Source: Deltaproteobacteria bacterium
GTDB taxonomy: Bacteria > Bacillota > Clostridia > Acetivibrionales > UBA4821
Length of the DNA: 64,000 nucleotides
Assembly: GCA_050258375.1 (NCBI GenBank)
Contig: JBLMYQ010000068.1
Coordinates: forward strand, 27,913-91,912
Direction: 5' to 3'
Each line of letters opens with the position of its first letter. The first letter of the stretch is position 1. Positions 5,314 to 59,822 of the stretch are shown here, piece by piece. The translations under genes were made by a program, and so were the position numbers. A model generated the notes under the pieces. The model did not search any database, was not told where the DNA came from, and saw only the letters and a program-made list of their open reading frames with translations.

Positions 5314-5324
5314 ACAACACCCCT

Positions 5325-6209: not shown

Positions 6210-6258
6210 TGTCCCTCCCAAAAGACTTATTTAGTGCACAATAAAGCTTTTATACAGT

Positions 6259-7329: not shown

Positions 7330-7342
7330 TTATTAACCCCCC

Positions 7343-7798: not shown

Positions 7799-7827
7799 GA
7801 CTTTCCCTCCACTTTTTCAATTCTGAA

Positions 7828-8553
7828 CTAGCTGAAGCTTATCTGTATATCAGTTGCCAGTTCATTTGCCCTTACAAGTGATTCAAATGTGCCTGCATCA
7901 GTCCACCAACCGTCAAGAATGTCATACGTCATTGTTCCTCTTCTTATGTATTCATTGTTAACGTCAGTAATCTCCAATTCACCCCTACCAGAGGGTTTAA
8001 GCGTTTTTATTATATCAAAGACATCAGAATCATACATGTATATCCCTGTTACCACATGATTGCTTTTAGGATTTTTAGGCTTTTCTTCAACTGAAATAAT
8101 CTTATCTCCATCCAATTCCACTACGCCGAATCTTTCAGGATTGGTAACCGATTTAATAAGAATCTTTGCGCCTTTCCCCTGTTCTTCAAAGCTCTCTACA
8201 AACTCGGTAATATCTTTTCTGAAAATATTATCACCTAAAATAACAATACATTTATCATCTCCAACAAAATTTTCTGCCAGTCCAAGCGCTTGAGCAATAC
8301 CTCCTGCTTCATCCTGAACCTTATATGTAAAATTCATGCCAAATTCTCTTCCGCTCCCAAGTAGATTGACAATATCCCCCATATGCTCAAGCCCTGTAAC
8401 AATAAGTATTTCATTTATTCCCGCTTCCTTAAGCTTACTTATTGGATGATATATCATTGGATATTTTCCTACCGGAAGTAAATGCTTATTCGTTACTTTT
8501 GTCAATGGATATATCCTTGAGCCCGTTCCTCCTGCCAGTATTATTCCTTTCAT
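7828..8553 (-). CDS. rfbA: Glucose-1-phosphate thymidylyltransferase (short form)
   Basis: MKGIILAGGTGSRIYPLTKVTNKHLLPV... nucleotidyltransferase signature. Start set at the ATG at 8553 (AAAGGGA SD). The track's 42-codon N-terminal extension to 8679 lacks homology logic and would overlap the upstream gene. Confidence 0.88.
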   Translation of the reverse strand: MKGIILAGGTGSRIYPLTKVTNKHLLPVGKYPMIYHPISKLKEAGINEILIVTGLEHMGDIVNLLGSGREFGMNFTYKVQDEAGGIAQALGLAENFVGDDKCIVILGDNIFRKDITEFVESFEEQGKGAKILIKSVTNPERFGVVELDGDKIISVEEKPKNPKSNHVVTGIYMYDSDVFDIIKTLKPSGRGELEITDVNNEYIRRGTMTYDILDGWWTDAGTFESLVRANELATDIQISFS

Positions 8554-8599
8554 ATGAATATCCCTTTCATCTTTCTGCATATACGAACTTTTATACAAT

Positions 8600-8608
8600 A
8601 TTATAGCA
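8600..8608 (-). promoter_or_regulatory. Candidate extended -10 promoter element (TGCTATAAT) upstream of rfbA
   Basis: Minus-strand TGCTATAAT lies in the 122-nt gap, about 47 nt upstream of the rfbA ATG. No good -35, which is acceptable for TGn promoters. AT-rich background makes chance matches common. Confidence 0.35.
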
Positions 8609-8675
8609 TAATATGCCAAAGAAAATACTTTTGACAAAGAACTTTTTCCTGAAAGAATAAAAGCTCCGTGAATCT

Positions 8676-9620
8676 TCACAAAGCTTTATGAAGAGAAAAT
8701 ATAAATCCTAAATACCCAAAATTTCTTAATACTCCATTTTTTGTAAATCTATACTTGATAATTGTTCTTATTCTTGCAAGTCGAGACTGCTCTAAAAGGG
8801 TTGAGAATCTCTGTGCCGTTTTTCGCTCGCTCTCTTCCATTAAGCTGCCATATACCTCCTCTAAGGCTTTTGACTGCTTAAAAATATTGTAAAACAAATT
8901 TGTCATTTTATTTTTATTTTCAAATTTCTTTATAAAATATTTTAGTGAATATTTCTTAGCTCCTATTTCATTCCTGCCATGCTGTCTATACAAAATCGTA
9001 GGCTGCTTTACATAGCCTATTTTTCCTAAAGCTGAAGCTACAAGCGCCAGCCACCAGTCATGTATGATTGCCTCTTTTGAAAAGGGCATAACTAATTCCT
9101 TTAGCTTTTTATTTATCAAAACCGTGCAGCCGGTTACATTATTCTCTACCAGCATATAATTCAGACTCTGTCGCTCAGGATTCAGCTTTTGATACCTCCA
9201 TATTGAATCTGAAGAAACTTTGAGATTTTGATCTGCAACCTTCAAATCCGTATGAACAAGAATGGGCTTATCAAAGTACGCTTTCTCCATCTCAAGCATT
9301 TTTGCCAATGTAATTTCAATCTTATTATCAAGCCAGACATCATCCTGATCACAAAACATCATATACTCCGCATCAGAAAGCTCTAAAAGTCTTGCAAAGC
9401 TGAAGCATGCGCCCAAATGCTTGTCCTGGTCATTGATAAAAACAATTTTTTCGGGATACCTTTTTGAATATTCTTGAATTATCTCTATGGTAGCATCTAA
9501 AGACCCATCATCCCTAATGAGAAGGCGCCAATCCTGAAAGGTTTGCCCCAGAAGTGAATCCAGCTGCTCTCTAATAAATTTTTCACCATTGTAGGTTGAA
9601 AGAAGTATATCAATTTTCAT
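8676..9620 (-). CDS. Glycosyltransferase family 2 (rhamnosyltransferase-like)
   Basis: 314 aa. MKIDILLSTYNGEKFIREQLDSLLGQTF...LIRDDGS...FCDQDDVW is the typical GT2 pattern found next to rml genes. Confidence 0.8.
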   Translation of the reverse strand: MKIDILLSTYNGEKFIREQLDSLLGQTFQDWRLLIRDDGSLDATIEIIQEYSKRYPEKIVFINDQDKHLGACFSFARLLELSDAEYMMFCDQDDVWLDNKIEITLAKMLEMEKAYFDKPILVHTDLKVADQNLKVSSDSIWRYQKLNPERQSLNYMLVENNVTGCTVLINKKLKELVMPFSKEAIIHDWWLALVASALGKIGYVKQPTILYRQHGRNEIGAKKYSLKYFIKKFENKNKMTNLFYNIFKQSKALEEVYGSLMEESERKTAQRFSTLLEQSRLARIRTIIKYRFTKNGVLRNFGYLGFIFSLHKAL

Positions 9621-11937: not shown

Positions 11938-12471
11938 TTAATAATCATTTAATATTTGCGTTAAATTGCTGATAATCCTTGAGGCTCTAGAGCTTTCAAT
12001 ATGACTTGACCCTGACAAAAGAATATTTTCTTTTACCCCTGCATTAATACCGGCTTGAATATCGCTTTCTCTATCTCCAATAGAAATGGACTTTAATAAA
12101 TCAATATCAAAATCTTTTTGCGCCTCAAGAAACATGCCTGCTTTTGGTTTTCTGCATTCACAGCTTGCTTTATATCTTCCCAATCCAAACTCAGGATGAT
12201 GTGGGCAATAATAGACTTTACTAATATGGATACCACGGCTTTCAAACTGCTTTAGCATCCAGCTGCTAAGCTTGTGAAAATCTTCTTCGGTATAATAGCC
12301 TCTGCCTATTCCAGCCTGATTGGTAATTATTACCAGCAGATATTCTCGCTGCTGATAGTACTTAAGCACTTTAAAAATACCTTCAGCAAACTCAAAGTCC
12401 TCAATCTTGTGAACATAATTTTTTTCTTTATTTATTACTCCGTCCCTATCCAGGAAAACTGCTTTATTCAT
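11938..12471 (-). CDS. gmhB: D-glycero-D-manno-heptose 1,7-bisphosphate phosphatase (HAD-IIIA)
   Basis: 177 aa. [19 protein letters not shown], Zn-site C..H..C.CRKP, GDRESD. Confidence 0.85.
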
Positions 12472-13160
12472 ATGTGCCTCCCCAACTCCCTTTTTGCTTT
12501 TTCATAATCCTCCGGAATACCAATGTCTATAAAATATGTATTAGAAATATATGAGCCGAACTTTAATCGTTGCAGCTGATTTGGGAAAAAATCATTTTCA
12601 ATTGAAAATTTATCAGGCAAATCTAAATCATTGAATAAACAGGGGTTGGTTATATAAATCCCACCATTTATATAACCATATTTTTTATATTTCTTTTCAT
12701 TAAAATTAATAATTCTTTCACCAACCACTTCAACTGAGCCATATCTGTCAAAGTTCTTCATTGGTTTCAGAGCCAAACTAAAATCAGCCTGCATTTTTGA
12801 ATGCTGCTCAACAAAGCTCCTTATATCAATATTAAAAAAAGTATCACCATTGAGAATAATAACATCCTTCTCTTCAACATTTAGAACAGCCTTTTTTATA
12901 GCCCCTCCGGTTCCCAAAGGTTCATCTTCAATTGAATAAATAATTGAAATATCCTTATAATTTTTTTCAAAATATTCTTCTATTATTTCATGCTTATATC
13001 CGGCAGATAATATTACACGTCGTACTCCTTGCCTCCATAAATACTCAAATATATACCATAAAAATGGCTTTCCATTAATAGGTGCCATAGGCTTGGGAAT
13101 ATCTTGCACAATTTTCTTTAGCCTTGTTCCTAATCCGCCTGCCAATACAATTACTTCCAT
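12468..13160 (-). CDS. hddC: D-glycero-alpha-D-manno-heptose 1-phosphate guanylyltransferase (sugar nucleotidyltransferase)
   Basis: [33 protein letters not shown] signature. Start set at the ATG at 13160 (AAGGGA SD, 1 nt after the gmhA stop). ATGA overlap with gmhB. Confidence 0.8.
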
Positions 13161-13161
13161 T

Positions 13162-13746
13162 TTAGAATCCCTTACCAAATATTGCTTTTTCAATAACCGA
13201 ACATATTATATGACCTATAAGAATATGCGTTTCTTGAATTCTTGGTGTTTCCTCCGACTGGACCCTTATACAATAATCACACAGTTCCAGCATATTTCCC
13301 CCCGAGCTTCCTGTTAATCCTACCGTAACAATTTTTTTCTTTTTACATTCTTCCAAAGCCTTTATAATATTAGGCGAATTTCCGGAAGTAGAAATTCCTA
13401 TAAACATATCGCCTTCTATACCATACGCCTGAATTTGCCTTGCAAATATATTTTCATATCCATAGTCATTTCCAATAGCTGTCAGTATTGATGTGTTTGT
13501 TGTAAGCGCAATAGCCGGAAGGCCTTCCCTGTCGAAGTAGAATTTGTTTACAATTTCAGCAGCCATATGCTGGGCATCTCCAGCACTTCCTCCGTTCCCT
13601 GCAAGCAATATTTTTTTTCCGCTTTTATATACATTTACTGCTTCTTCACATATACTTTCTATCAATTTGCTAAAGGATTCATCCTTATGAATTATTTGTT
13701 TTATGTTTAAAGCCTCTTTAATCTGATAATTAATATAATCAAACAT
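13162..13746 (-). CDS. gmhA: Phosphoheptose isomerase (SIS domain)
   Basis: 194 aa. [31 protein letters not shown] motifs. Confidence 0.9.
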
Positions 13747-14773
13747 ATCTTGCCCTCCAACTTTGTGCCCCTTGCTTGGTAAAATGAAAGTTCACAACCT
13801 TTCCGCCCAGCTCATTTAATGCGTTTACTAATTCTAATTTTCTTACTGGCTCAACCATAAACATCATAAACCCTCCGCCGCCAGCACCCGAAACTTTTCC
13901 GGCATATGCGCCATTCTCCATAGCTATTTTAAAAACATTTTCTAAATTTTCATTGGTAATAGAAGCAGCCATTTTCTTTTTTGCTTCCCATGATTTCCCG
14001 AGATAACGAGAAAATTTGGAGATTTCTCCTTTTAGAATTGCTTCTTTCATAATTAAAGCATCTGCTTTTAATTCATGCATTGCTTCGATAGATTTTATAT
14101 TTTTCTCTTTAACATTGTTAGCTTGTTCCTCGATGATTTTTGCAGATTCTCTGGATACACCTGTATAGTACAATACCATTGCACTTTCCAGCTCGCTTAT
14201 AATCCATTCCTTAATTCTAAGCGGATTTACAACCACCCTGTCATTTTCATAAAATTCAATAAAATTAAAACCCCCAAAGGAAGCAGCATATTGATCCTGC
14301 TTCCCACCACTTAGCTTAACATCAATTCTTTCTATCTCATAAGCCAAATGGGCTATGTCATATTCTCCCAAAGGAAGATTCAATGCCTCCGTAAATGCCT
14401 TCAGTATTGCAACAACCATTGTAGAAGAAGAACCAAGCCCCGAGCCTGCAGGTGCATCAGAATATGTAGTAAGGTTAAGATATAAAGGCTTAGAATTATT
14501 AAATTGTTTTACTATTCTGTTATAAATCCCTTTATGCAGATTAAGAATTCCATCCAATTCAAAGAAAGCCTTACTTTCACTTTCAAAATATTCTTTTCTA
14601 TCAACAGCATTCAAAGAAACAATTCCAGTATCAGTAAGCTCTATAGTGCAATATGCATACATATCTATTGCTGCGTTAAGCACACATCCCCCAAAATCAT
14701 CACTATATGGGGAAACATCAGTCCCCCCTCCTGCCAAGCCTAATCTTAATGGAGCTCTAGCTCTAACAATCAA
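13739..14773 (-). CDS. hddA: D-glycero-alpha-D-manno-heptose 7-phosphate kinase (GHMP kinase)
   Basis: [15 protein letters not shown]-terminus, GHMP motif [11 protein letters not shown]-terminal GAGGGGF. I prefer the TTG at 14773 (GGGTGA SD 5 nt upstream) over the GTG at 14782. Confidence 0.8.
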
Positions 14774-14788
14774 TAAAATCACCCATTT

Positions 14789-37216: not shown

Positions 37217-38347
37217 CTAAATTCTTTTATATAATTTATCTAAGTATTCAGCAATTTTTGTATAGTGATGATACTCTTGTGCATACTGTCTTGATATTTT
37301 ACCAGTATCCTTCCACTTAGATTCATTATCTAGCAAATCTTTTATTACTGAATAAATGTTATCAATGTTTGCATTAATCACAGGATGCTTATGCGGTAAA
37401 ATAGCTTCAACTTCAGGGCGTATATATGTAACAACAGGCTTACCTATTGACATACATTCAACCGCAGTCGACCCATACCAGCCTGCCCTAAGCTGATCAA
37501 TTACAATGTCTGCCTGAGCCTGAAAATATTTTAAATCATTGCTTTCTATATTGTCAAAAAAAATGAACTCTACCTTATACCCTTCTGACTGCAATCTTTC
37601 TACCGCTTCTTTTATATATTGTGTTCCCTTAACATCCCCTCTAGTCTGGCTATTGCCAAAAGAGTGATATATTAATGTCTTTTCTGTTTTAGGAAGTCTA
37701 AATTCAGCAGGTATTTCATCATAACTTATGGGTTTCCATTCATTACAATCTATTGGATTATCTATCCATGTAATATTTTTATATGATGCTGCTAAATCGC
37801 CATTAGATAAATTCAAATCTGCTAATTCAAAAGCTTTTTGTATTAGTTCTTTTTTTTGAATAGATGTATTACAATCTCGCCTAACTGTTTCTTCACATTC
37901 ATTACACGCCGAATAAGGATAAACAATGTCTACTTGCTCTGTTCTTACATCACATCCCCACCAACTTATTACAACCTTTTTACCCATCTTCTTAAGATAT
38001 TTGATATCATCTAGTCTTTCCCACAAAGAATATATCGGATTTAATAATCCAAACCCACTATGAAAATGAAATATATCATAATTATCAATTGCATAAAGAA
38101 GGAATTCTATTTCTCTTGTTTTATCTACCTGCAAACCATTGGAGCCGTCAATTTGCAAATCAATATCACAGCCTCTTGCAAGCCACTTAAATGGAGCAAA
38201 ATCAAACACCATATAATCAGCATTATATCCCATCGAACGTAAGCCTTTGGCATATAAATATGGCTGATAAAGTGCAACAATTGGCGCTTGTAAAACTCTA
38301 GGCTTAGATATCTTCTTAATATGTATTGCAAAATCTTTTATAAACAT
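37217..38347 (-). CDS. Putative GT-B fold glycosyltransferase
   Basis: 376 aa. C-terminal ...LRAGWYGSTAVECMSIGKPVVTYI resembles the GT1/GT4 nucleotide-binding helix region. Overlaps the wzm stop, suggesting translational coupling. Confidence 0.5.
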   Translation of the reverse strand: MFIKDFAIHIKKISKPRVLQAPIVALYQPYLYAKGLRSMGYNADYMVFDFAPFKWLARGCDIDLQIDGSNGLQVDKTREIEFLLYAIDNYDIFHFHSGFGLLNPIYSLWERLDDIKYLKKMGKKVVISWWGCDVRTEQVDIVYPYSACNECEETVRRDCNTSIQKKELIQKAFELADLNLSNGDLAASYKNITWIDNPIDCNEWKPISYDEIPAEFRLPKTEKTLIYHSFGNSQTRGDVKGTQYIKEAVERLQSEGYKVEFIFFDNIESNDLKYFQAQADIVIDQLRAGWYGSTAVECMSIGKPVVTYIRPEVEAILPHKHPVINANIDNIYSVIKDLLDNESKWKDTGKISRQYAQEYHHYTKIAEYLDKLYKRI

Positions 38348-39126
38348 GATTGAAAATATCCTTTCAACTTTCTAAAAAATCTCAATCCAAATACCCAGAG
38401 AAATAAAGATATAAGTATAAGATAACCAACTCCCCAAAAATCAGGAGGATGCTTTCCTACAATTACTTGCCTGAAGGAATTTGCAATCTGGTATAAAGGA
38501 TTATAGAAGTTAATATTCCTTATTATTGGCGGCATCATTTCTAAGGGGTAAAATATTGGAGTAAAAAACACCAATATTAATAATACTGAAGATACAATTT
38601 GAAGTACATCTCGAACAAAAACATGAAGAGCAGATAAAAAAAATCCTACTCCTATCAAAAAGAACATTTGCAAAGGTATCAATAATATTAGCCAAAGTAT
38701 ATTCAGACTAAGTCCTGTTCCTTCAATAATCAAAAGTGGAACAAGTACCAAAAAACCAACTGCCATAGGAAATATACCCATTAAAGTTGAAGCCATTGGC
38801 AGCAATTCAACCTTAAATACTATATTTTTTACTAAAGCTGTTCCACTTACAACTGAAGATGTAGCTGTTAATATTCCCTCTGATATTGCCAACCAGGGTG
38901 CATAACCGCTTGTAAGCCAAATAACAAATGTTAAAGATTTATCACTTCCAGGCATTTTTGAATTAAATACAAACCCAAATACATATATATATATTCCAAA
39001 TAACAGAAGTGGATTAATTATTGACCATAGCATTCCAATTCTTGAGCCTAAATATTTATCCCTTACATACATTTTAAATAGATTTACTACTATTCTAAAA
39101 TCCTCTTTGTTAAAACCGAAAAACAT
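38338..39126 (-). CDS. wzm: ABC-2 type polysaccharide exporter permease
   Basis: Six hydrophobic segments; typical Wzm N-terminus ...YVRDKYLGSRIGMLWSIINPLL. Start set at the ATG at 39126 (AAGGGGA SD 6 nt upstream), 2 nt after the wzt stop. Confidence 0.85.
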   Translation of the reverse strand: MFFGFNKEDFRIVVNLFKMYVRDKYLGSRIGMLWSIINPLLLFGIYIYVFGFVFNSKMPGSDKSLTFVIWLTSGYAPWLAISEGILTATSSVVSGTALVKNIVFKVELLPMASTLMGIFPMAVGFLVLVPLLIIEGTGLSLNILWLILLIPLQMFFLIGVGFFLSALHVFVRDVLQIVSSVLLILVFFTPIFYPLEMMPPIIRNINFYNPLYQIANSFRQVIVGKHPPDFWGVGYLILISLFLWVFGLRFFRKLKGYFQSCL

Positions 39127-39128
39127 TT

Positions 39129-40352
39129 TTATTCCCCTTTTATCCATTCATATTTACAATAGTAATCTGGCTTTGAAGCATTAAATATAACAAGGTTAAC
39201 TACTTTTACTACCGTAGCCTCCTTAGCAACTGCTATTCCACTACTATCCAATACCTCACACAAAACTTCATAAACACCTTCACTGAATTTAATATCTCCT
39301 ACTTTTACATCGATATTTATCCTATTCCCTTTTAATATTGGAGGCAGCTTAGCTCCATCTTGAGATGCCAAGTTTTGCATTATTAATGTTCCGTCCATTT
39401 TTATTAGCGAAAGCCTAATATCCCACTCTAATAAATCATCCACTCCCTCTATCACAACATGAACCATTAATTCCTCATATAACTCAAAAATTGTTTTTTT
39501 CTGCATATCTGATGAGACTAAATAATAATCATTTATCTTTACAGCGCCCTTTAATTTGCTTGTTTCAACTCTAATGATAAGCTTATTATTTAGTTCTTCC
39601 TCTTCCTTTTTTTTAACCGATTCAATATAAGCCCTTGTAACAGAAAGAGAATCTCCATCCATGATAATCTTTCCTTTATCTAACCAAATAGTTCTATCTG
39701 CCATTGATGTGATAGTACCCATTGCATGGGATACAACAATTAGAATTTTTCCTTTTGAGCATAACTCTTGAATTTTTTTTGCAGATTTTAATGCAAAATC
39801 TGCATCACCAACCCCTAGAACCTCATCAATTATTAATATCTCAGGCTCAACGAAAGATAACATTGCAAATGACAACCTTGCCTTCATACCAGATGAATAT
39901 GTTCTAACAGGCTTATTAATATACTCTCCTATATCAGCAAATTCAATAATTTCATTTAAAAGTTTGTCCACTTCGCTTTTAGTCTTGCCATGCAGTTCTC
40001 CCTCAGTATAAATATTTTCTATACCAGTCAGTTCTTCTCTAATACCAACTCCAAGCGTCATTATGGCATTTATTTTTCCATTAATTTTTATATCACCGCT
40101 GCTTTGTTCAGCGAACCCGCCAATAAGGCTTAGCAGCGTAGACTTTCCAGCTCCATTCGGGCCAATAATCCCTACCCTTTCTCCTTCATTTATCTCAATA
40201 TTAATATTTTCTAATGCTATAAAATTATTAGCTTTATTCTCATTTGATATTGCAGTCTGCTTAAAAGTTTTAATATTTTTAATAACTGAGGATTTATTTA
40301 TGGCAAAAATTTTATAGACATCATTCATTTTTATAAATAATTTATCTGCCAT
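39129..40352 (-). CDS. wzt: Polysaccharide ABC exporter ATP-binding protein with a C-terminal Wzt_C-like glycan-binding domain (copy 2)
   Basis: 407 aa. Walker A GPNGAGKST, signature YSSGMKARLSFA, Walker B LIIDEVLGVGD, H-loop VSHA. About 150-aa C-terminal beta-rich domain with FSEGVYEVLCEV. Confidence 0.85.
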   Translation of the reverse strand: MADKLFIKMNDVYKIFAINKSSVIKNIKTFKQTAISNENKANNFIALENINIEINEGERVGIIGPNGAGKSTLLSLIGGFAEQSSGDIKINGKINAIMTLGVGIREELTGIENIYTEGELHGKTKSEVDKLLNEIIEFADIGEYINKPVRTYSSGMKARLSFAMLSFVEPEILIIDEVLGVGDADFALKSAKKIQELCSKGKILIVVSHAMGTITSMADRTIWLDKGKIIMDGDSLSVTRAYIESVKKKEEEELNNKLIIRVETSKLKGAVKINDYYLVSSDMQKKTIFELYEELMVHVVIEGVDDLLEWDIRLSLIKMDGTLIMQNLASQDGAKLPPILKGNRINIDVKVGDIKFSEGVYEVLCEVLDSSGIAVAKEATVVKVVNLVIFNASKPDYYCKYEWIKGE

Positions 40353-41488
40353 TTTAGCTCCTTTTTAATTAATTGTTTAGTCTTATTCTCACCCTCAACT
40401 TTGAGCTTAATTGCATTTCCATTTAACCATGTCAAAGCTTCATATCCCTTATCTACAGTTTTCTGACCTTCAACTAACGGTGAAGAAAGGAATAAACAAA
40501 GTAAATATTCTCCAGGTGCCAGATAAAAATCCTGGATAACTAATGATATATTATTAGTTTTAGGTTTATCTATTTCTATATTTTTACTTCCAGTCATTGC
40601 CAAAGACCATCCAATTCCTTCTATATGTCTTTCAATAGAGAAGGCTACTGAAAAGCGATTTTCTACACATTTTTTATGTTTTTTTACTTGAAACTTATAT
40701 ATTAATGGCTTTCCCGATGTTGCAAATGCGATATTTTCAGTCATTTCTTTCTTATTTAAAAAGGTTATCTCATCAGATTCTATAAAAGGTATATTTAAAT
40801 ATTTTTGAACCGCTTTATAGGTTTCACCTATATAATCTATACCTTGCTTTGAGAGAACAACAGTCCTTTTACACAATTTCATTAAAGATGTCCAATCATG
40901 AGACACGATAATTCCTGTTGCACCGGCTGACAAAAAAGAACGCAACCTATTCCATGCCTTACCTTGAAAGTATTCATCTCCTACAACTAAAAATTCATCA
41001 ACCAAAATAATTTTTGCAGGTATTGCAGTAGCTACCCCAAAAAGCAATTTCGCCTTCATTCCTGATGAATATGTTCTTATTGGCTCATGAAAGAAATCTC
41101 CTAATTCAGTAAACTCACAAACAGATTTTATTATGTTATTTAATCTTTCTCCTTTTAATCCTCTAAAGCGGAAATAATCTCTACAATAATTTTCTCCAGT
41201 GAGTTCCACGTTAAAGAAGGAACCCAATTCAAAAATGGAAACAATGTCCCCTTCGGTTATCAGTTTACCACTATCTTTATCATAAACTCCACCTATTAAC
41301 TTTAGTAAAGTTGATTTGCCTACTCCATTTTTGCCAATGATACCAAGCAGTTCACCAGCTTCAACCTCAAAAGAAATATCATTTAATATTAAAATCCTTT
41401 TTTGCTTTGTAGAAAGGATAGATCTTATTGTAGGTCTTTTATCATCTAGAAATGATTTATATACGTTTTCTAATTTAATTAGTCCTAT
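40331..41488 (-). CDS. wzt: Second Wzt-type ABC ATPase (copy 1) with a divergent C-terminal domain; no canonical start codon, ATA start proposed
   Basis: The track ORF starts at TTG 41227, downstream of the Walker A. The same frame is open to a TAG at 41504-41506 and encodes IGLIKLENVYKSF...GKNGVGKST (Walker A), then YSSGMKAKLLFG, ILVDEFLVVGD, VSHD. No ATG/GTG/TTG lies between 41503 and 41228. SD AGGAAGAGG ends 8 nt before the ATA at 41486-41488. Confidence 0.6.
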   Translation of the reverse strand: MGLIKLENVYKSFLDDKRPTIRSILSTKQKRILILNDISFEVEAGELLGIIGKNGVGKSTLLKLIGGVYDKDSGKLITEGDIVSIFELGSFFNVELTGENYCRDYFRFRGLKGERLNNIIKSVCEFTELGDFFHEPIRTYSSGMKAKLLFGVATAIPAKIILVDEFLVVGDEYFQGKAWNRLRSFLSAGATGIIVSHDWTSLMKLCKRTVVLSKQGIDYIGETYKAVQKYLNIPFIESDEITFLNKKEMTENIAFATSGKPLIYKFQVKKHKKCVENRFSVAFSIERHIEGIGWSLAMTGSKNIEIDKPKTNNISLVIQDFYLAPGEYLLCLFLSSPLVEGQKTVDKGYEALTWLNGNAIKLKVEGENKTKQLIKKELKWQINYL

Positions 41489-41594
41489 TTTACTCGCCTC
41501 TTCCTAACTTTGATAAGAAGAACTTGGCTTAACAAAGTTTTCTAGAATTTATATATAAACCCGAAATTATTCATATCACAATAGTGCCTCAACA

Positions 41595-41624
41595 ATTATA
41601 TTCTTACTTTCATAAACTTTGCAA
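41595..41624 (-). promoter_or_regulatory. Candidate sigma-A-type promoter (TTGCAA-18 nt-TATAAT) upstream of the wzt pair
   Basis: On the minus strand, -35 TTGCAA (41619-41624) and -10 TATAAT (41595-41600), in the 237-nt AT-rich gap between wbqC-like and wzt copy 1. Confidence 0.3.
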
Positions 41625-41725
41625 TATAATGTTATACTTTTTCCATTTTTTCTATTTTAAATAAATTAAATTCAGTTATAAATCAAATACATATTTTTAT
41701 TTATAAACTTTTATTATATTCCTAC

Positions 41726-52401: not shown

Positions 52402-53712
52402 TTATAATACTTCAATATTATTTCTTGCTTCAACCTTCTTCATTGCATTCTTAGTATCAAAAACCATTTTCGAATTCTTCTGTACAAATTCATAATCTAC
52501 AGTTGAATGTGCAGTTGTAACTACTACCAAGTCCATACTCCTTAGCATTTCCTTGCTAAACTCGCAGCCTTCGTACCTCTTCCCTTTATACTTAAACTTC
52601 GTAACATACGGATCATAATATGATACAATGCTTCCTTCTTTTGAAAAATTATCTATCAGCTTTAGTGCCGGGCTTTCTCTATAATCATCTATATCCTGCT
52701 TATATGCAATACCTAATATTAAAATCTTTGAATCCTTTAAAGGCTTGCCAAATCTGTTCAATATTCTTGATGACCTTTCAACTACATACTGCGGCATATA
52801 ATTATTAATTTCTCCTGATATCTCAATCAACCTTGTATGATAATCATACTCTCTTGCCTTCCATGTAAGATAATATGGATCCAGAGGAATACAATGTCCT
52901 CCAATACCGGGTCCTGGATAAAAAGCCTGAAATCCGTAAGGCTTGGTCTTTGCAGCCTCAATTACTTCCCAAACATTTATTCCCATCTTATCACATATTA
53001 TAGCCATTTCATTTGCCAAACCAATATTGATATTTCTATAGGTATTCTCGAGTATCTTTTCCATTTCAGCAACTTCAGGGCTGGAAACCTGAAAAATATC
53101 ACTTTCTAATATACTTCCATAAAGTGCAGCTGCCAGCTCGGTACTATCTTTTCCGATTCCTCCAACCACCTTCGGTGTATTTTTTGTTTTAAAATAAGCA
53201 TTACCGGGGTCAACTCTTTCAGGGGAAAAAGCAAGATAAAAATCCTTTTCACATTGAAGACCCGAAATCTTTTCAATTATAGGCTTCACAAGCTCCCTTG
53301 TCGTGCCCGGGTAAGTAGTGCTTTCAAGTACTACCAGCATACCTGCATGCATGTGCTTTGCAATTTCTTCGGCTGAAGCTTTTACATAGCTAATATCAGG
53401 CTGTTGGTAAGCATCAAGAGGGGTTGGCACACAAATTGCGACACAGTCAACCTCTTTAATTAATGAATAATCAACTGTAGCTTTTAACAGTCCATCCTTG
53501 ATAACCATTTGAAGGTCTTTATCAACTATATCACCAATATAATTATGACCTTCGTTAACCATGTTCACTCTTTCTGCCTGCACATCAAATCCAATAACCT
53601 TATAGCCAGCCTTTGCCTTTTCTACTGCAAGTGGAAGACCAACATAACCCAGTCCTACAACTCCTACAACAGCTGTTTTCTCATTAATCTTCTTTAATAG
53701 AGTCTGTTTCAT
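52402..53712 (-). CDS. Nucleotide-sugar 6-dehydrogenase (WbpA-like UDP-N-acetyl-D-glucosamine dehydrogenase)
   Basis: VVGLGYVGLPLA, catalytic GPGIGGHCIPLDP. Start set at the ATG at 53712 (GGAGGA SD). First gene of the WbpA/B/D/E-like set in biochemical order. Confidence 0.8.
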   Translation of the reverse strand: MKQTLLKKINEKTAVVGVVGLGYVGLPLAVEKAKAGYKVIGFDVQAERVNMVNEGHNYIGDIVDKDLQMVIKDGLLKATVDYSLIKEVDCVAICVPTPLDAYQQPDISYVKASAEEIAKHMHAGMLVVLESTTYPGTTRELVKPIIEKISGLQCEKDFYLAFSPERVDPGNAYFKTKNTPKVVGGIGKDSTELAAALYGSILESDIFQVSSPEVAEMEKILENTYRNINIGLANEMAIICDKMGINVWEVIEAAKTKPYGFQAFYPGPGIGGHCIPLDPYYLTWKAREYDYHTRLIEISGEINNYMPQYVVERSSRILNRFGKPLKDSKILILGIAYKQDIDDYRESPALKLIDNFSKEGSIVSYYDPYVTKFKYKGKRYEGCEFSKEMLRSMDLVVVTTAHSTVDYEFVQKNSKMVFDTKNAMKKVEARNNIEVL

Positions 53713-53727
53713 AAAATCCTCCAAACA

Positions 53728-54801
53728 TTATATGTCAAACGGTATAGTTACTATTTTCCCTTCTCTGGATGATTTATATACGGCAAGTATAAGCTCAAGT
53801 GCTTTTCTTCCGCTTCTGCCATCAGTTATAGGCTTTGCATTGTTCTTTAAAACATCTATAACATTTTCATAATAAGCAGCGTGCCCCAACCCATAAATAT
53901 TAGGCGGCTCATAATTTGAACTTTTTATTAAATTATCATCTTCATTTTCCTGCTCGAAATTCCATTCTTCTATATGATTAAGTGCAACCCCGCCAATCCT
54001 TGCAGTCCCTTTTTCACCTATTACAGTTATACTTCCTTCAAGATTTTTGGGGTATGTAAGCATGGTAACATTTATATTTCCTACAGCACCATTTCTAAAT
54101 TTCATTACTGCAGAGCCGGTATCTTCAGCTTCAATCTTTCTGGCTAAGGTTGTTGTAATTGCAGAAACGCTTTCAACCGGACCACCAATCCATTCCAATA
54201 AATCTATATAGTGACTAGCCTGATTCATGAAGGCTCCGCCATCAAACTCCCATGTTCCTCTCCAGCTTGCATCATCATAATATGCTTGTGGTCTTGTCCA
54301 CAATACATTGGCAAGAATCATGTATATCCTACCGAATCTATTATTATCAACTGCTTTCTTTAATAATTGCATTGTTGAATTCAACCTATTTTGTTTCACT
54401 ACAAATAATTTTACTTTTTCCTGATCGCATACCTTTATCAACTCATCAGCAAGCTTAAGATTAGTTGCCATAGGCTTTTCAGATAATATATTAACCCCTT
54501 TTCTGGCTGCTTTTATTCCATGTTCGGGATGAAGACCACTTGGTGTACAAATTGAAACAATATCAAGCTTTTCGTTCTCAAGCATATTGTCTATATCAGT
54601 ATAAATTTTGGGTTTTTCTGCTTTGATACCTTTTTGAGCCAGATGTTGAATATATTCATTTGCCTTTTGTTCAGCTTTTTCTTTCATAATATCACAGACA
54701 GCAGTTATTTCCGCGTCGTTATTCAATTCAGCAAGAGCTTCTACATGCTTATATGAAATTCTTCCACAGCCAATTATTCCAAATCTGATTTTTCTAGACA
54801 T
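53728..54801 (-). CDS. Gfo/Idh/MocA-family oxidoreductase (WbpB-like 3-dehydrogenase)
   Basis: 357 aa. RFGIIGCGRIS N-terminus, ...LSEKPMA... Confidence 0.8.
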   Translation of the reverse strand: MSRKIRFGIIGCGRISYKHVEALAELNNDAEITAVCDIMKEKAEQKANEYIQHLAQKGIKAEKPKIYTDIDNMLENEKLDIVSICTPSGLHPEHGIKAARKGVNILSEKPMATNLKLADELIKVCDQEKVKLFVVKQNRLNSTMQLLKKAVDNNRFGRIYMILANVLWTRPQAYYDDASWRGTWEFDGGAFMNQASHYIDLLEWIGGPVESVSAITTTLARKIEAEDTGSAVMKFRNGAVGNINVTMLTYPKNLEGSITVIGEKGTARIGGVALNHIEEWNFEQENEDDNLIKSSNYEPPNIYGLGHAAYYENVIDVLKNNAKPITDGRSGRKALELILAVYKSSREGKIVTIPFDI

Positions 54802-54862
54802 TTTATTCTCCTTAATCTGCTAACTCCCTACCTATTCTCCCCTCACAATTGAAGGTGGGAAG

Positions 54863-55441
54863 TTAATCTGCGCATTTTACAAAATTATCTTCTAATACAT
54901 ATTTTTCATCACATGCATAGCAAGTATATTCCTGTGTGCTTGCAAAATCAAGTTTTTCTCCGCATTTGCATACCCAGCCTTTTACTCTTGCCGGATTCCC
55001 AACAACAAGCGCAAAATCAGGAATATTTTTTGTGACTACGGCTCCAGCCCCTATAAATGCATATTTTCCTATATCATGGCCGCATACGATAGTTGCATTT
55101 GCTCCAACCGAAGCTCCTTTTTTTACAATAGTTTTTTTATACTCATTTCTTCTATTAACATGACTTCTTGGGTTTATAACATTGGTAAAAACACATGAAG
55201 GTCCAAGAAATACATCATCTTCACAAATAACACCTGTATAAACAGAAACATTATTTTGTATCTTAACATTATTACCAAGAATAACCTCTGAAGATATTAC
55301 AACATTTTGCCCTATATTGCAATTTTCTCCTATTTTTGAATTACTCATTACATGAGAAAAATGCCATATTTTTGTTCCTTTTCCGATTTGACACGGCTCA
55401 TCAACATAGCTTGACTCGTGCACGAAGTATTCTTTCTCCAT
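54863..55441 (-). CDS. Left-handed beta-helix N-acetyltransferase (WbpD-like)
   Basis: 192 aa. Hexapeptide repeats ([36 protein letters not shown]). Confidence 0.8.
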
Positions 55442-55513
55442 ACTATCATCATCCCTCTTGTTTAATATAAATACCCTACCGAACTTATGATATATATACT
55501 CTTGATTTTAATT

Positions 55514-56629
55514 TTACATTTTACACTTGTTTGAAAATTCCCTAACCTTCTCTATTACATAATCCTGCTCTTCTATGGTCATCTCCGGCGATATCGGAAG
55601 CGATATAACCTTATTACATGCCTCTTCTGCATTAGGCATATCTCCATTTTTATAGCCAAGCTCTTTGAAGGCTTCCTGCAAATGCAACGGCACCGGATAA
55701 TAAACGCTGGTCCCTATCTCATTATCCTTCAAGAATTTAGCCAATTCATCCCTTTTTTCGACTTCAATTGTATATTGGTGATAAACATGATACTGCTTAT
55801 AATCCTTAGCTTCTTCCGGAGTCTTTACTATGTCAGCAAGGTACTTATTGTATCTATATGCATGATTTCTTCTTTTTTGGTTCCAATCAGACAAATACTT
55901 ACTCTTAACATTTAATATGGCTGCCTGGATTTCATCCAATCTGCTGTTGTACCCTATAATACTATGATGATATTTCACATTTGAACCATGCTGCCTTAAA
56001 AGTCTGATATTTTCATTCAGACTTTCATCATCTGTTACAATCATTCCTCCATCGCCATATCCACCAAGATTTTTTGTGGGAAAGAATGAAAAGCACCCTG
56101 CATCTCCAAAGCTTGAAACCTTCTTGCCTTCAAACTCGGAACCGATTGCCTGACATGAATCCTCAACTACATGCAAATTATATTTTTTTGCTATATCCAT
56201 TATTCTCTTCATATTGCATGCCTGTCCGAAAAGGTGAACGGGAATAATAGCTTTTGTGTTTTTCGTGATTTTTTCTTCTATTCTATCTGCATCTATTAGA
56301 TAAGTGCCTCTTTCTATATCAACGAATACAGGAACAGCTCCGAGCTTTGCAATAACCTCTGCAGAAGCAAAAAATGTAAAAGGAGTTGTTATTACTTCAT
56401 CTCCCGCACCGATATTCAAGGCTTTAAGGGTAAGCTCCAATGCATCAGTTCCATTAGCAACCCCTATTCCAAACTTGACATTACACAGCTTTGAAATGTT
56501 TTCTTCTATTTTTTTGACCTGTGGTCCTAAGATAAACTGGCATTTCTCCAGAACCTCAATTATACTTTCATTGATTTCTTCCTTCATATTTATATACTGA
56601 CTTTTCAAATCCAATATCGGTACTCTCAT
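55514..56629 (-). CDS. DegT-family aminotransferase (WbpE-like)
   Basis: 371 aa. ...FSFFPTKNLGGYGDGGM (PLP-Lys motif), NGTDALELTLKAL. Confidence 0.85.
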   Translation of the reverse strand: MRVPILDLKSQYINMKEEINESIIEVLEKCQFILGPQVKKIEENISKLCNVKFGIGVANGTDALELTLKALNIGAGDEVITTPFTFFASAEVIAKLGAVPVFVDIERGTYLIDADRIEEKITKNTKAIIPVHLFGQACNMKRIMDIAKKYNLHVVEDSCQAIGSEFEGKKVSSFGDAGCFSFFPTKNLGGYGDGGMIVTDDESLNENIRLLRQHGSNVKYHHSIIGYNSRLDEIQAAILNVKSKYLSDWNQKRRNHAYRYNKYLADIVKTPEEAKDYKQYHVYHQYTIEVEKRDELAKFLKDNEIGTSVYYPVPLHLQEAFKELGYKNGDMPNAEEACNKVISLPISPEMTIEEQDYVIEKVREFSNKCKM

Positions 56630-56677: not shown

Positions 56678-57658
56678 TTACCTTTTCAACTTTTCAAAAT
56701 AATACTTTATATAAAGAAGCTTTTTCCCTAGAAGTCCATACAATAAAAATTTCATTATATTTTTAAAGCTTAATACTCCAATCCTGCATATATTATTTCC
56801 CAATATCATTCTTATTCTTTTATATAGTTTTTCCTCCAAAATCAAATTATTCATTGAATTGCTGAATTTTAGAATCTTAATATATTTTTCTTTTTTATTT
56901 TTGTCATTTTCATTTTTAATTATGAAATTCTCAAATTCATTATAATAATTGAGTGTTCTTGCCGTTAACCTTAATTGTTTTTCGACCAAAAGCTTTATAT
57001 TTTTATTATTATATGAAGCATTATCATTATTTGCGTGCTGTCTGTATTTAATAAGCTTTTGACTCGTGGGTACTATTTTGCCGTAATAACAAGCCACAAA
57101 TGCTATCCACCAATCCTCAAACAACAGCTTTTCTGGAATCGGAAAAATTTTTTCTTTTATTCTTCCATCAAATAAGATTGTACCCCCTGAAACATAATTT
57201 TGCTGAAGCAGGCTTTCAATATCAACCTTTTTATAAGGCTTAATTTCTGTTTGAGCCCAGAACGAATCTGCTAACTTATTCAGACCCGCATCAACAATCT
57301 CCATGTCTCCGAATATTAAAGCAGCATCATTTTTTTTGATTAAATCTACTTGTGCTTGAATTCTGTAAGGAAAACAAATATCATCTGCAGCATGTATTGC
57401 TACATAATTTCCTGCTGCTTTTTCCATTCCCTTATTTATTGCGTTTACTTTACCCATGTGAGGCAAATCAATAAGAATTATATTATTGTAAGCTTTTACA
57501 AGCTTATCAATTTCATTTTTTGAATCATCACCAGAGCCATCATTTACAACAATAATTTCAATATTACTGTACGTCTGGTCAATGCAGCTTTGAATTGACT
57601 CAGCAATATATTTCCCGGCATTATAAACAGGTATGACTATGCTAACCAAAGCTTCCAT
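56678..57658 (-). CDS. Glycosyltransferase family 2 (first gene of the locus)
   Basis: VSIVIPVYNAGKYI...VNDGSGDDS...HAADDI motifs. Start set at the ATG at 57658 (AGGTGA SD 5 nt upstream) rather than the GTG at 57667, which lies inside the SD. Confidence 0.85.
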   Translation of the reverse strand: MEALVSIVIPVYNAGKYIAESIQSCIDQTYSNIEIIVVNDGSGDDSKNEIDKLVKAYNNIILIDLPHMGKVNAINKGMEKAAGNYVAIHAADDICFPYRIQAQVDLIKKNDAALIFGDMEIVDAGLNKLADSFWAQTEIKPYKKVDIESLLQQNYVSGGTILFDGRIKEKIFPIPEKLLFEDWWIAFVACYYGKIVPTSQKLIKYRQHANNDNASYNNKNIKLLVEKQLRLTARTLNYYNEFENFIIKNENDKNKKEKYIKILKFSNSMNNLILEEKLYKRIRMILGNNICRIGVLSFKNIMKFLLYGLLGKKLLYIKYYFEKLKR

Positions 57659-57704
57659 ATCATTCACCTATATGTATAAAAAGGTATTATTATTATCTTA
57701 AAGC

Positions 57705-57733
57705 ATTTTATACTATTTCCTCTCACTATACAA
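57705..57733 (-). promoter_or_regulatory. Candidate sigma-A-type promoter (TTGTAT-17 nt-TAAAAT) proximal to the first GT2 gene
   Basis: On the minus strand, -35 TTGTAT (57728-57733) and -10 TAAAAT (57705-57710). Modest match in an AT-rich context. Confidence 0.3.
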
Positions 57734-57734
57734 G

Positions 57735-58085
57735 GCTTTACTCTGCACCTTCTCCCTATAGCCCTCACCCATCTATCTTCCCTCCGTAGTCGTCAATGGG
57801 GGCATTCCCCCGCATTGCGGATGCTGTGCATCCTGTCTCCCCCTTCTGAAGAAGGGCTGACGTAGAAATTGCTCACGGGCAGGCGAGGGAAGGAAAAGAA
57901 AGTTCTTTGGAGATTTTACAGGAGAAGGGAACAAACAAGGTAAAGTCTTTAATAAATTCGGGACGAAAAGTAGTTTTTCATAGGAAAACCTTCATAGAAA
58001 TTACTATTCGCTCCCTGTCAGGGAGGCTAGGAGGGTCTGGATTTGGAATTATTTGTATTCATGCATTTGCCCCTGACTCTGCACT
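57735..58085 (-). promoter_or_regulatory. GC-rich, multi-hairpin ~350-nt non-coding region upstream of the glycan locus (candidate structured leader or ncRNA, class unknown)
   Basis: Local hairpins: 57798-57811 (ggggg-catt-ccccc), 57819-57833 (ggatgc-tgt-gcatcc), 57841-57856 (cccttc-tgaa-gaaggg), 58011-58025 (ctccc-tgtca-gggag). Long-range complements: 57748-57755 with 57921-57928; 57777-57784 or 57762-57769 with 57882-57892. No convincing ORF. Strand assignment is tentative. Confidence 0.4.
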
Positions 58086-58087
58086 GA

Positions 58088-58120
58088 CAAAAAGAAAAAG
58101 AGCCTATAAAAAGGCCCTTT
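58088..58120 (-). terminator. Rho-independent terminator after the DUF3794/LysM gene
   Basis: Minus-strand AAAGGGCC-UUUUUAUA-GGCUCUUU (8 bp, one G.U) followed by UUCUUUUU. Begins 21 nt after the stop at 58141. Confidence 0.6.
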
Positions 58121-58140
58121 TGACTATTTAAAAATTCTTC

Positions 58141-59721
58141 TTATTGCCTAACGTATACCTTTTTAGCAGGCTTCTTTGGTATTATTATCAACTGCCCTAT
58201 CGCAAGCTGGTCGGGATTTGCAATATTATTTATTCTTATCAGCTCCTGAAGTGATACATTAAACTTCTTTCCGATTTTCCAAAGTGTGTCTCCAGGTTGA
58301 ACAAAATATACTATTATGCTTGGCTTTAACCCAAAGACTCCTTCATCTGGCTCTATTCCTTCTGCCTTGTTAATTATATTAAGCTTGGAATTTTTGTAGA
58401 GCTTTATTTGTGTTTTTAATACAATCCTTACATCTACATTCCCATCAGGTTCAAGATTGTACCCGCAAGAAACTGTTTCAACATTAACTTTATACATCAT
58501 TTCCGGCTCAGCTTCTTTTATATCCATTGAATTCATAAAAGGAATTTCATATTTATATGACGAAGGAGTCTTCATCTCGCCTGACGAATACAAGAACCTT
58601 ACTTCCACCGCTCCATTTATTGTTACTTTTCCATGCTGAACCTTTACATCTATAACAATCGGCTTGCATGTCATGCCATTTATCTTTTTTACTTCTGATT
58701 TTTCCGGAAGCTGAACTTTATCCTTAAGCACCAGCTCATTTTCTGCTTCAGCAGCTATTTGATTTGCATAGAGCTCTTTTCGTTCCATATCAATCATATA
58801 ATCCGGACTGTACATGTCAACAATCATTTGTTTTTGCTCTTTTACAAAAGCTCTCGCATTCAGTTCAACCGCAGCTTTAAATCTTAATATTCTAAGCTCG
58901 CCTTCAGTATCTTCTTCAGCAATTGCAGACAGGTCACCGACGACTGCATCCACATCACAAAAAGCATTTTCATCAACACCTGGAATATCCATGAACTGAG
59001 TAAACGGGAAAGTATATTCTACGGTTTCTATGCTTCTATCCTCATCCTCACCTGAATAAAGTGCTCTGACATTTACTTCGCCCTTAACTATTACCTTATT
59101 GTCTGAAACCTTTATCTCCCTGGAAATACTTGCCTCAGCTGATAAAACTTCAAAAACAGATGGCATGGCTTCCGGTATATCAACTTCCTCTTTAATTGTA
59201 AACCTATCTGAGCATTCGCCGATAAACTGACATATTTCGAATTCTTCTTTTTGTTTTTGAATATTATCTTCATCAAGAGTATCAACAATCACTTCTGCTT
59301 CAACTCTTTCATTTATTACTACCCCTAACTGAGCAATAGCCTCAACAACTATTTTCCTTTCATTAAGTATTTCATATTCGGAGTTTAGTATTATTCCATC
59401 AACATCAGCCGTCATACCCTGTTTTGCGCCATCAATTTCTAATGGCTCCTTGAATGGTACACTTGCATTAAGCGCTCTTATAGGTCTATCCTCATCCTTG
59501 GCAAGATATATAATGTTGAAGTTGACCACCCCGCCAAGAACCACCTTATCTGTAAGTACCTCTCTCTCGTTAACCATAACATTGCTGTCAATGCTTAAAA
59601 CACCAAGTAAATCAGCCTTTGCATCCGGAATTATCAAATCTCCCTGCACTGAGAATTGCAGAGATTCCTCTCCAACTACCCTTTTTATTCTTAAAGGCTC
59701 CCTGACTAACTCTATAGCCAT
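58141..59721 (-). CDS. DUF3794-repeat protein with a C-terminal LysM domain
   Basis: C-terminal YFVQPGDTLWKIGKKFNVSLQELIRINNIANPDQLAIGQLIIIP is a LysM domain. Repeated beta-rich modules upstream. Start set at the ATG at 59721 (GGGAGGGA SD 8 nt upstream). Confidence 0.75.
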   Translation of the reverse strand: MAIELVREPLRIKRVVGEESLQFSVQGDLIIPDAKADLLGVLSIDSNVMVNEREVLTDKVVLGGVVNFNIIYLAKDEDRPIRALNASVPFKEPLEIDGAKQGMTADVDGIILNSEYEILNERKIVVEAIAQLGVVINERVEAEVIVDTLDEDNIQKQKEEFEICQFIGECSDRFTIKEEVDIPEAMPSVFEVLSAEASISREIKVSDNKVIVKGEVNVRALYSGEDEDRSIETVEYTFPFTQFMDIPGVDENAFCDVDAVVGDLSAIAEEDTEGELRILRFKAAVELNARAFVKEQKQMIVDMYSPDYMIDMERKELYANQIAAEAENELVLKDKVQLPEKSEVKKINGMTCKPIVIDVKVQHGKVTINGAVEVRFLYSSGEMKTPSSYKYEIPFMNSMDIKEAEPEMMYKVNVETVSCGYNLEPDGNVDVRIVLKTQIKLYKNSKLNIINKAEGIEPDEGVFGLKPSIIVYFVQPGDTLWKIGKKFNVSLQELIRINNIANPDQLAIGQLIIIPKKPAKKVYVRQ

Positions 59722-59822
59722 ATTCAAAATCCCTCCCGCTTTAAAATGTTAATAATAAAAAAATTACTGTAAGCTAATTTATATATATTGCTTGTTTCAA
59801 AAAAATAGAACTACTTTGTTTC

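Follow-up and report, generated by a model that had tools for sequence, protein, structure and literature searches.

What is a GC-rich, hairpin-rich stretch of non-coding DNA doing between a sporulation gene and a long glycan gene cluster? The stretch of DNA that we analyzed (64,000 nt; hereafter the window) is otherwise AT-rich, and a sequence-only reading had proposed that the segment is a regulatory leader of the cluster, either riboswitch-like or of the processive-antitermination kind, with an independent non-coding RNA or a repeat-element remnant as fallbacks. We put the probability at about 70% that positions 57748-58075 are a MITE-like insertion, non-coding and non-autonomous, lying between the terminator of sipL and the promoter of the glycan cluster. 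The repeat family to which the segment belongs is GC-rich, occurs in uncultured Bacillota/Clostridia, was unclassified before and appears undescribed.

The host interval of the segment is 482 nt long and separates two minus-strand genes. One is sipL (58141-59727), a SipL/SpoVID-type sporulation gene with Pfam SipL and LysM matches; the source lineage is spore-forming and poorly sampled. The other is the first glycosyltransferase gene (GT2) of the glycan cluster (ORF 56678-57667, minus strand), with a likely ATG at 57658 preceded by AGGTGA. By Pfam, the scanned ORFs of the window (at least 120 aa) include sugar-nucleotide enzymes, glycosyltransferases, four AsnB-like amidotransferases and a Wzm/Wzt exporter. 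In relatives with a 67–79% identical SipL, sipL is followed by an H+-PPase gene and not by the glycan cluster, and no similarity to the segment was found at their loci.

The description of a GC-rich non-coding stretch in AT-rich surroundings, made from the letters alone, is borne out for this interval between sipL and GT2. G+C at 57768-57887 reaches 58.3%, the highest value among the 120-nt stretches of the 64 kb, for which the mean is 33.1% (sd 6.1%) and the runner-up stands at 51.7%. The only ORFs in the segment encode 53 and 74 aa and are non-conserved. A phmmer search with a 72-aa open frame hit nothing but a tandem-repeat protein that is unrelated, exact look-ups for the products of three ORFs were negative, and no second copy of the segment was found elsewhere in the 64 kb.

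All four hairpins that the sequence-only reading had described are present, at the coordinates it gave: GGGGGCATTCCCCC (57798-57811), GGATGCTGTGCATCC (57819-57833, GGATGC TGT GCATCC; H2), CCCTTCTGAAGAAGGG (57841-57856, CCCTTC TGAA GAAGGG; H3) and CTCCCTGTCAGGGAG (58011-58025). A longer version of the GGGGG/CCCCC hairpin, H1, occupies 57794-57817 (CAAT GGGGG CATT CCCCC gc ATTG). Both long-range 8-bp complements are likewise exact, namely an outer closing helix of the 5' arm CCTTCTCC (57748-57755) with GGAGAAGG (57921-57928), and a second closing helix of CTTCCCTC (57777-57784) with GAGGGAAG (57885-57892). The arms GCCCCTTCTCCTT/AAGGAGAAGGGGC of a related copy described below (L022) are homologous to the outer closing helix. 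The competing GTCAGGG/CCCTGAC pairing is real, with its coordinates corrected by 2–3 nt to plus-strand positions 58017-58023 and 58071-58077. Some alternative pairings, e.g. CCCUCGCC with GGUGAGGG, are indeed G.U on the minus strand only, and the hairpins within the region lack a following U-tract, again as first described; the sole terminator-like site of the region is the sipL terminator (58121-58096).

Folding of 57725-57955 gave −82.2 kcal/mol for the minus strand (z −3.26, reached by 0 of 200 shuffles) and −76.2 kcal/mol for the plus strand (z −2.52, reached by 4 of 200), with z values of −2.55 and −2.27 on the two strands when the entire intergenic region was folded. The structure signal of the segment is thus moderate yet real, and nearly symmetric between strands. 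Across the related copies, the minimum free energy favors the plus strand in some and the minus strand in others, the two being approximately equal, which is expected of DNA palindromy and not of a strand-specific RNA. The helices, including the mutually exclusive ones, are accounted for in the same way, because a palindromic element with complementary arms yields them on either strand.

We compared the two edges of the interval with related loci. The intrinsic terminator of sipL (58096-58121, minus strand) is no part of the element, and its counterpart in the closest sipL relative (L014) aligns with it. At the other edge, a likely promoter of the glycan cluster occupies 57705-57733 on the minus strand, with a −35 TTGTAT at 57733-57728, a 17-nt spacer and a −10 TAAAAT at 57710-57705. 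It falls within a 51-nt block (57742-57691) that is identical at 39 of 51 positions to a block upstream of a 60%-identical GT2 gene in a relative (L010). There, the block begins ∼25 nt after the terminator of another gene and must therefore hold the promoter of that GT2 gene. This conservation supports the candidate proximal promoter that had been picked out at these positions.

Between the sipL terminator and the promoter block, nothing aligns to either L014 or L010. The equivalent terminator–promoter interval of L010 lacks the segment, and when 57748-58083 is excised in silico, the remaining interval becomes collinear with that of L010. Judged from these alignments, the segment is a non-conserved filling between terminator and promoter, which would place it outside the 5' UTR that starts from that promoter, because the conserved −35/−10 block (57733-57705) is nearer to the gene than the end of the element at 57748.

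Homologous copies of the segment do exist, and they lie elsewhere. The sequence-only reading had pointed to conserved copies upstream of similar loci as a check on a leader, and to multiple copies as a sign of a repeat element. What we found is a family core, corresponding to 57763-57889 of the window (plus strand, as alignment orientation only), with 13 copies on 12 other contigs. These match the window at 75–90% identity by blastn and with nhmmer E-values from 1e-8 to 1e-28, and they come from uncultured Bacillota contigs whose MAGs have a GC content of 33–45%. A covariance model scored the 14 copies at 60–92 bits (88.6 bits for the window core), values that are circular because the same copies formed the training set; applied to 238 kb, including the rest of the window, it found no further copy. 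Such occurrence at many loci supports the fallback reading as a repeat element.

The copies were recovered by two scans. A 20-mer of the H1 hairpin, run against a metagenome collection, returned L017, L018 and L019, the last with two copies within 13 kb, and a degenerate pattern run against a genome collection added nine contigs (L022, L027 and L029-L035). L022, L029 and L031 belong to one MAG and L030, L034 and L035 to another, with L027, L032 and L033 besides; MAG149 (JBLNBO01) and OH_PFB_209 (JAEZXR01) each carry copies on three contigs. Seven other matches to the pattern (L020, L021, L023-L026 and L028) were rejected as chance matches in high-GC DNA. The left-end 22-mer CTTCTCCCTATAGCCCTCACCC had no match in the genome and metagenome contig collections, neither of which contains the source species, and searches of plasmid, phage and viral collections gave only two short matches at chance level (E 0.03 and 0.7).

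All copies are intergenic and their neighbors are unrelated. Copies follow the T-box terminator in the leader of ileS, or separate gap from pgk, mcsB from a ClpC-sized ORF, holA from the gene of an M16 peptidase, or 2-hydroxyacyl-CoA dehydratase genes from each other; DUF5711 and MBOAT genes are among the further neighbors. Relative to the flanking genes, eight copies are in sense and five in antisense orientation (the window copy included), with one undetermined. Relatives with a similar GT2 gene (L010 and L011) are without the element. Essential operons such as gap-pgk and ctsR-clpC accommodate a copy in both orientations, and the element is therefore probably not a transcription terminator.

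Each end of the window copy was set by evidence of its own. Three Logan contigs (SRR24085898, -899 and -900) encoding an identical GT2 protein all end at 57777, and their downstream ends differ from one another. Logan contigs are built at k = 31 and contain each 31-mer once per accession. A unique flank therefore enters a repeat by k − 1 = 30 nt, and the common stop at 57777 sets the repeat boundary at 57748, with CCTTCTCCCTATAGCCCTCACCCATCTATC (57748-57777) as the 30-nt overlap between these contigs and the element. Homology to the left arms of other copies fixes the same end. The evidence for multiple copies in the source genome itself is indirect and consists of this identical k = 31 break in three samples.

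At the right, the boundary is given by a direct repeat. A putative 8-bp target-site duplication, ACTCTGCA, occurs at 57740-57747 and again at 58076-58083, and the ninth base, the C at 57748, is repeated too (57740-57748 and 58076-58084). At least one 9-nt direct repeat arises in 32% of shuffles of this interval, so that by chance alone such a repeat is not rare; it gains weight because it coincides with the independently defined assembly boundary. Taken together, assembly break and homology on the left and the direct repeat on the right delimit a GC-rich, hairpin-rich, non-coding MITE-like element copy of 328 bp at 57748-58075, to which no strand is assigned. No terminal inverted repeat rises above chance at either end of the window copy; only an internal, degenerate one is present (57752-57766 versus 58023-58037). 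Toward its right end lies a separate module (58000-58044, plus strand; nhmmer E 3.5e-11) of the form TTCGCTCCC-TGTC-AGGGAGGCTAGGAGGGTC, a hairpin followed by a G-rich tail. The two L019 copies (L019a and L019b) and L017 share this module, and there the tail pairs with a C-rich left end; L001 carries the right module on its own.

Terminal structure is clearer in the sister copies, which measure ∼213–285 bp (family elements overall span 210–330 nt). The three OH_PFB_209 copies can be aligned over ∼213 nt only, a length whose limits are marked by the 17-nt inverted repeat CTTCGATTCGTAATTTG; z values for the terminal inverted repeats of these copies were 7.1 and 4.7. Clear terminal inverted repeats were seen in L030 and L034 (17 nt), L033 (17 nt), L022 (13 nt) and L019a, where the repeat is long and imperfect and has AAATAGGG and AAATAGAG directly outside it, matching at 7 of 8 positions. 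Flanking duplications occur at identical offsets in L030 (AGGAATAA) and L035 ((G)TTTAAATA). The flanking direct repeats are thus 8–9 bp long in the window copy, L030, L035 and L019a, and their sequence differs from copy to copy; L034 and L017 showed no clean target-site duplication. Between subfamilies, the termini are unrelated.

Conservation is concentrated in the middle. A two-hairpin core of ∼65 nt is 85–100% identical across at least six MAGs or metagenome bins, and the arms around it diverge. Within this core, the GGGGG/CCCCC stem of H1 and its CATT loop are invariant in all 14 copies, and the GGATG/CATCC stem of H2 is invariant as well, with a loop that ranges from 3 to ∼30 nt. H3 is kept in ∼8 of 14 copies and lost, broken or replaced in 5–8 of 14, 68% of its helix cells being paired. 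A covariation check on the conserved helices, suggested when the segment was first described, came out negative: the 14 related sequences, a set of low power, show none, with 74–118 of 500 shuffles reaching the observed values and H1 and H2 never varying. Neither covariation nor strand preference gives evidence of selection on an RNA fold.

Several single-side helix changes give G.U pairs on the plus strand. These affect H3 (L030, L032 and L035), the closing pair of H2 (L034 and L035), and alignment columns 41-77 in L022 and 39-80 in the window subfamily. The H3 loops read GGAA or UGAA on the plus strand, and a T6 run follows the closing stem in L031. One copy, L032, has a consensus sigma-70 promoter (TTGACA-17-TAAGAT) 35–65 nt upstream of the core; given this promoter, some copies are probably transcribed.

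The mobile-repeat reading rests on the occurrence of copies at unrelated loci in both orientations, the discrete ends, the 8–9-bp flanking repeats, the terminal inverted repeats of sister subfamilies, and the position upstream of the promoter. We propose that the element inserted into a short spacer between the sipL terminator and the glycan-cluster promoter, and that the insertion would have duplicated 8 bp of target (ACTCTGCA); the predicted junction of the empty site is TTTTTGTCAGTGCAGAGTAAAGCCTTGTAT. In this family, a conserved two-hairpin core would be framed by left and right arms that are complementary to each other, an arrangement that would not constitute an expression platform. Movement may have depended on a DDE-type transposase supplied in trans, as suggested by the fixed 8–9-bp duplications and the inverted repeats. 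The window copy most likely affects the regulation of the cluster little or not at all, and would act at most as a spacer or as a stable structure in sipL read-through RNA.

Several other explanations have to be weighed against such an insertion. A cis-regulatory leader of the glycan cluster on the minus strand, whether a riboswitch-like aptamer or an EAR/LoaP-type antitermination element, would suit the long co-directional gene cluster directly downstream, the minus-strand fold (z −3.26) and the pairings that are G.U on that strand alone. The segment nevertheless lies upstream of the promoter block conserved with L010, and Rfam 15 at gathering score gave no match in the 64 kb or in 12 loci with copies, a search that covered EAR/epsC, T-box, c-di-GMP, group II intron domains, HEARO, known ribozymes and riboswitches. 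With the threshold relaxed to E ≤ 10 on 57500-58300 and on the sister copy L030, the only match inside the element was RAGATH-33 at a chance-level 14.8 bits, other weak matches falling on the sipL terminator. A Pfam scan of every listed ORF of at least 120 aa in the window, except three plus-strand ORFs overlapping larger genes, found no NusG/KOW domain of the kind expected for a LoaP/UpxY-type paralog, which speaks against processive antitermination together with the lack of an EAR/epsC match. Homologues flank unrelated genes with orientations split 8 versus 5, L010 and L011 have a similar GT2 gene and no element, the helices show no covariation, and the segment offers neither a terminator nor a platform for sequestering a ribosome-binding site. 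The leader reading is already largely refuted, and we consider it very improbable. A false lead is thereby set aside: no riboswitch or antitermination leader can be identified for the glycan cluster here, and the conserved TTGTAT-17-TAAAAT block is its likely promoter. Three further candidates were also rejected. ARAGORN finds no tRNA or tmRNA in the window of which the segment could be a remnant. An invertible promoter switch is at odds with a break at the outer and not the inner edge of the inverted repeat 57777-57784/57885-57892, and with the copies elsewhere. Group IIC introns insert after terminators and were considered for that reason, but the element is too short for one and is matched by none of the domain V/VI or D1-D4 models.

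A multi-copy family of structured small RNAs, in which the core would be transcribed from the plus strand and the copies would be paralogous, possibly mobile RNA genes, is unlikely, though the likeliest of the alternatives to an insertion. It would fit a core that stays 85–100% identical in at least six MAGs while the arms diverge, helix changes that yield G.U pairs on the plus strand, GGAA or UGAA loops in H3, the sigma-70 promoter upstream of the core in L032 and the T6 run after the closing stem in L031. Promoter and terminator are not consistently present across copies, however, the minimum free energy favors neither strand consistently, and no Rfam family matches; 74–118 of 500 shuffles reach the observed covariation while H1 and H2 never vary, and DNA transposition is what the 8-bp target duplications and the terminal inverted repeats suggest. 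The same duplications and repeats weigh against REP/REPIN-like sequences, i.e. palindromic units spread by a domesticated RAYT (IS200/IS605-type) and acting as mRNA-stabilizing or operon-internal structures. Such units measure 20–40 nt, against 210–330 nt here, and RAYT/HUH transposition makes no such duplications; moreover, no RAYT gene is found among the immediate neighbors of the copies, and GTAG precedes H1 in only 3 of 14. We regard this origin as quite improbable, even though the copies are intergenic, often within operons and tolerated in both orientations, and display GC-rich hairpins, a GTAG just 5' of H1 (window, L019a and L017) and modular arms, with a solo right module in L001. Least probable of all is that the segment is a scar or an assembly artefact, that is, GC-rich filler from a rearrangement that joined the cluster to sipL, or a chimeric metagenome join. 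The H+-PPase gene that takes the place of this cluster after sipL in relatives, and the short-read contigs that break inside the segment, could be read in this way; yet many other contigs contain members of the family between intact, unrelated flanks, the spoIID and GT2 proteins of the window recur in identical form in the same Logan samples, and the flanks carry a matching 8–9-bp direct repeat.

Within known systems, the nearest parallels to the proposed insertion are MITEs. In general, MITEs are short, non-coding and multi-copy, with inverted-repeat ends and target duplications, and they are typically AT-rich with conserved termini (PMC10969869). Like the prokaryotic examples (Correia of Neisseria, QMITE1/2 of Coxiella and bcr1 of the Bacillus cereus group), the family described here is shorter than 500 bp, lacks an ORF, and is intergenic and multi-copy in either orientation. 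It further resembles them in the terminal inverted repeats of most subfamilies, in the 8–9-bp target duplications and in the very stable stem-loops that its transcripts would form. It differs in having ∼58% GC in hosts of 33–45% GC, in contrast to AT-rich MITEs, in a middle far more conserved than the termini, these being entirely different from one subfamily to the next, and in a window copy without a clear terminal inverted repeat.

Other interspersed repeats share part of this architecture. BOX, RUP and SPRITE of Streptococcus pneumoniae and the ERIC/REP-type elements are also modular, with a left arm, a core and an optional right module and with complementary outer modules, and they also lie between genes and inside operons, where such elements could affect mRNA stability or termination. 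In contrast to the family here, they offer no sequence similarity or Rfam match to it; clear 8-bp duplications and hosts that are Clostridia-like MAGs set the present family apart. With riboswitches and the EAR/epsC and LoaP leaders, the resemblance is superficial only and consists of a GC-rich multi-helix region beside a long Firmicute polysaccharide cluster, from which the segment departs in lying upstream of a promoter and in lacking a family match, a NusG paralog, a gene or orientation association and covariation.

The case has some bearing beyond this locus. A GC-rich island that folds well within an AT-rich genome need not be a functional RNA but can be a mobile repeat, and the contig breaks of k-mer assemblies can help to delimit such repeats. 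For these uncultured Clostridia, the family is a nuisance source of assembly breaks; for the study of bacterial repeats, it is of modest interest.

The far better conservation of the core relative to the ends, and its GC richness in AT-rich hosts, leave room for the core being a functional module. A somewhat speculative possibility, which we rate as a small chance, is that the core, TCAWW-GGGGGCATTCCCCC-..-GGATG-loop-CATCC-TGTCWCCCCC, is such a module carried by several otherwise unrelated small mobile elements. It may be a structured RNA or a single-stranded DNA signal for a dedicated recombinase or host factor, or a mobile, ribozyme- or guide-like non-coding RNA. If true, this would account for a middle that, unlike the termini, stays conserved across MAGs of 33–45% GC, and would make the core a bacterial counterpart of the central domains of CORE-SINEs. 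The CORE-SINEs and V-SINEs of eukaryotes are retroposons with variable-length duplications, in which a conserved central domain is common to families that differ at their ends. The likeness to the present family, a strongly conserved center shared by families with different ends, is one of analogy only, and the fixed 8–9-bp duplications and inverted-repeat ends seen here indicate cut-and-paste or replicative DNA transposition instead.

Several copies of the hairpin-rich, MITE-like element lie within leaders or operons of host genes. On contig L018 (2722-3425), a genuine T-box leader (139 bits) ends in a terminator, and a family copy stands between that terminator and the ileS start codon, so that expression of ileS needs read-through transcripts that cross the element. 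Further copies, found in both orientations, interrupt conserved operons on three other contigs: between gap and pgk (L031, 4407-4828), between mcsB and a ClpC-sized gene (L035, 4333-4755), and between the activator and the D-component of a 2-hydroxyacyl-CoA dehydratase (L033, 4886-5114). These positions imply that the element does not block transcription.

On L019, an ORF (95-1165) lies upstream of one copy (1143-1428) and overlaps its inverted-repeat arms at the 3' end, so that the last codons and stop codon of this ORF seem to be supplied by the insertion. The modules of the family may also occur independently, as a hairpin with a G-rich tail (CGCCCC-ATTTTA-GGGGGG-GTAGGGGGGT), similar to the right module (nhmmer E 6e-6), stands alone between two polysaccharide genes in L001/L002 (5595-5633) and L003 (2403-2441).

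A 51-nt block at 57691-57742 of the window (minus strand) matches 537-588 of L010, a contig without the element, at 39 of 51 positions and contains TTGTAT-17-TAAAAT; the homologous GT2 genes downstream share only 60% identity. This block is probably the promoter of the glycan cluster and perhaps its operator as well.

Positions 1-57658 form a single minus-strand cell-envelope glycan region, comprising rhamnose genes (4474-8679), a heptose pathway (11938-14782), GlpA/B/C-like genes (20270-23356), a Wzm/Wzt exporter (38338-41227), WbpA/B/D/E-like genes for a 2,3-diacetamido uronic acid (52402-56629) and four AsnB-like amidotransferases (18338, 28634, 34522, and 48291). Two stretches, 10-12 kb and 24-50 kb, are lower in G+C (27-32%) than the ends of the window (36-38%), which suggests that the central part was horizontally exchanged. 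The cluster is tightly packed except for 498 nt lacking a long ORF (41228-41725), which could hold an internal promoter or other small feature.

In all relatives with SipL 67-77% identical (L001, L004, L006, and L016), an H+-pyrophosphatase gene follows sipL, with their glycan genes placed upstream of the SLH-spoIID-sipL block, whereas the window carries its glycan cluster after sipL. Judged by this gene order, the sipL-glycan locus is rearranged in the window's lineage. The closest sipL relative is represented by two independently assembled contigs, L014 and L015, and both end at one and the same base, 184 nt past sipL (2111 and 1887, respectively); a promoter-like CTTGAA-17-TAGAAT precedes this shared end, which may mark a further repeat boundary.

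NCBI records of the identical SipL and GT2 proteins carry the label of a 'Deltaproteobacteria bacterium' MAG. Because the window contig encodes the sporulation genes sipL (58141-59727) and spoIID together with an SLH-domain protein, this label, or the binning, is probably wrong. Equal caution may be warranted for MAG149, labelled 'Ignavibacteriales', which has 35% GC and three element copies.
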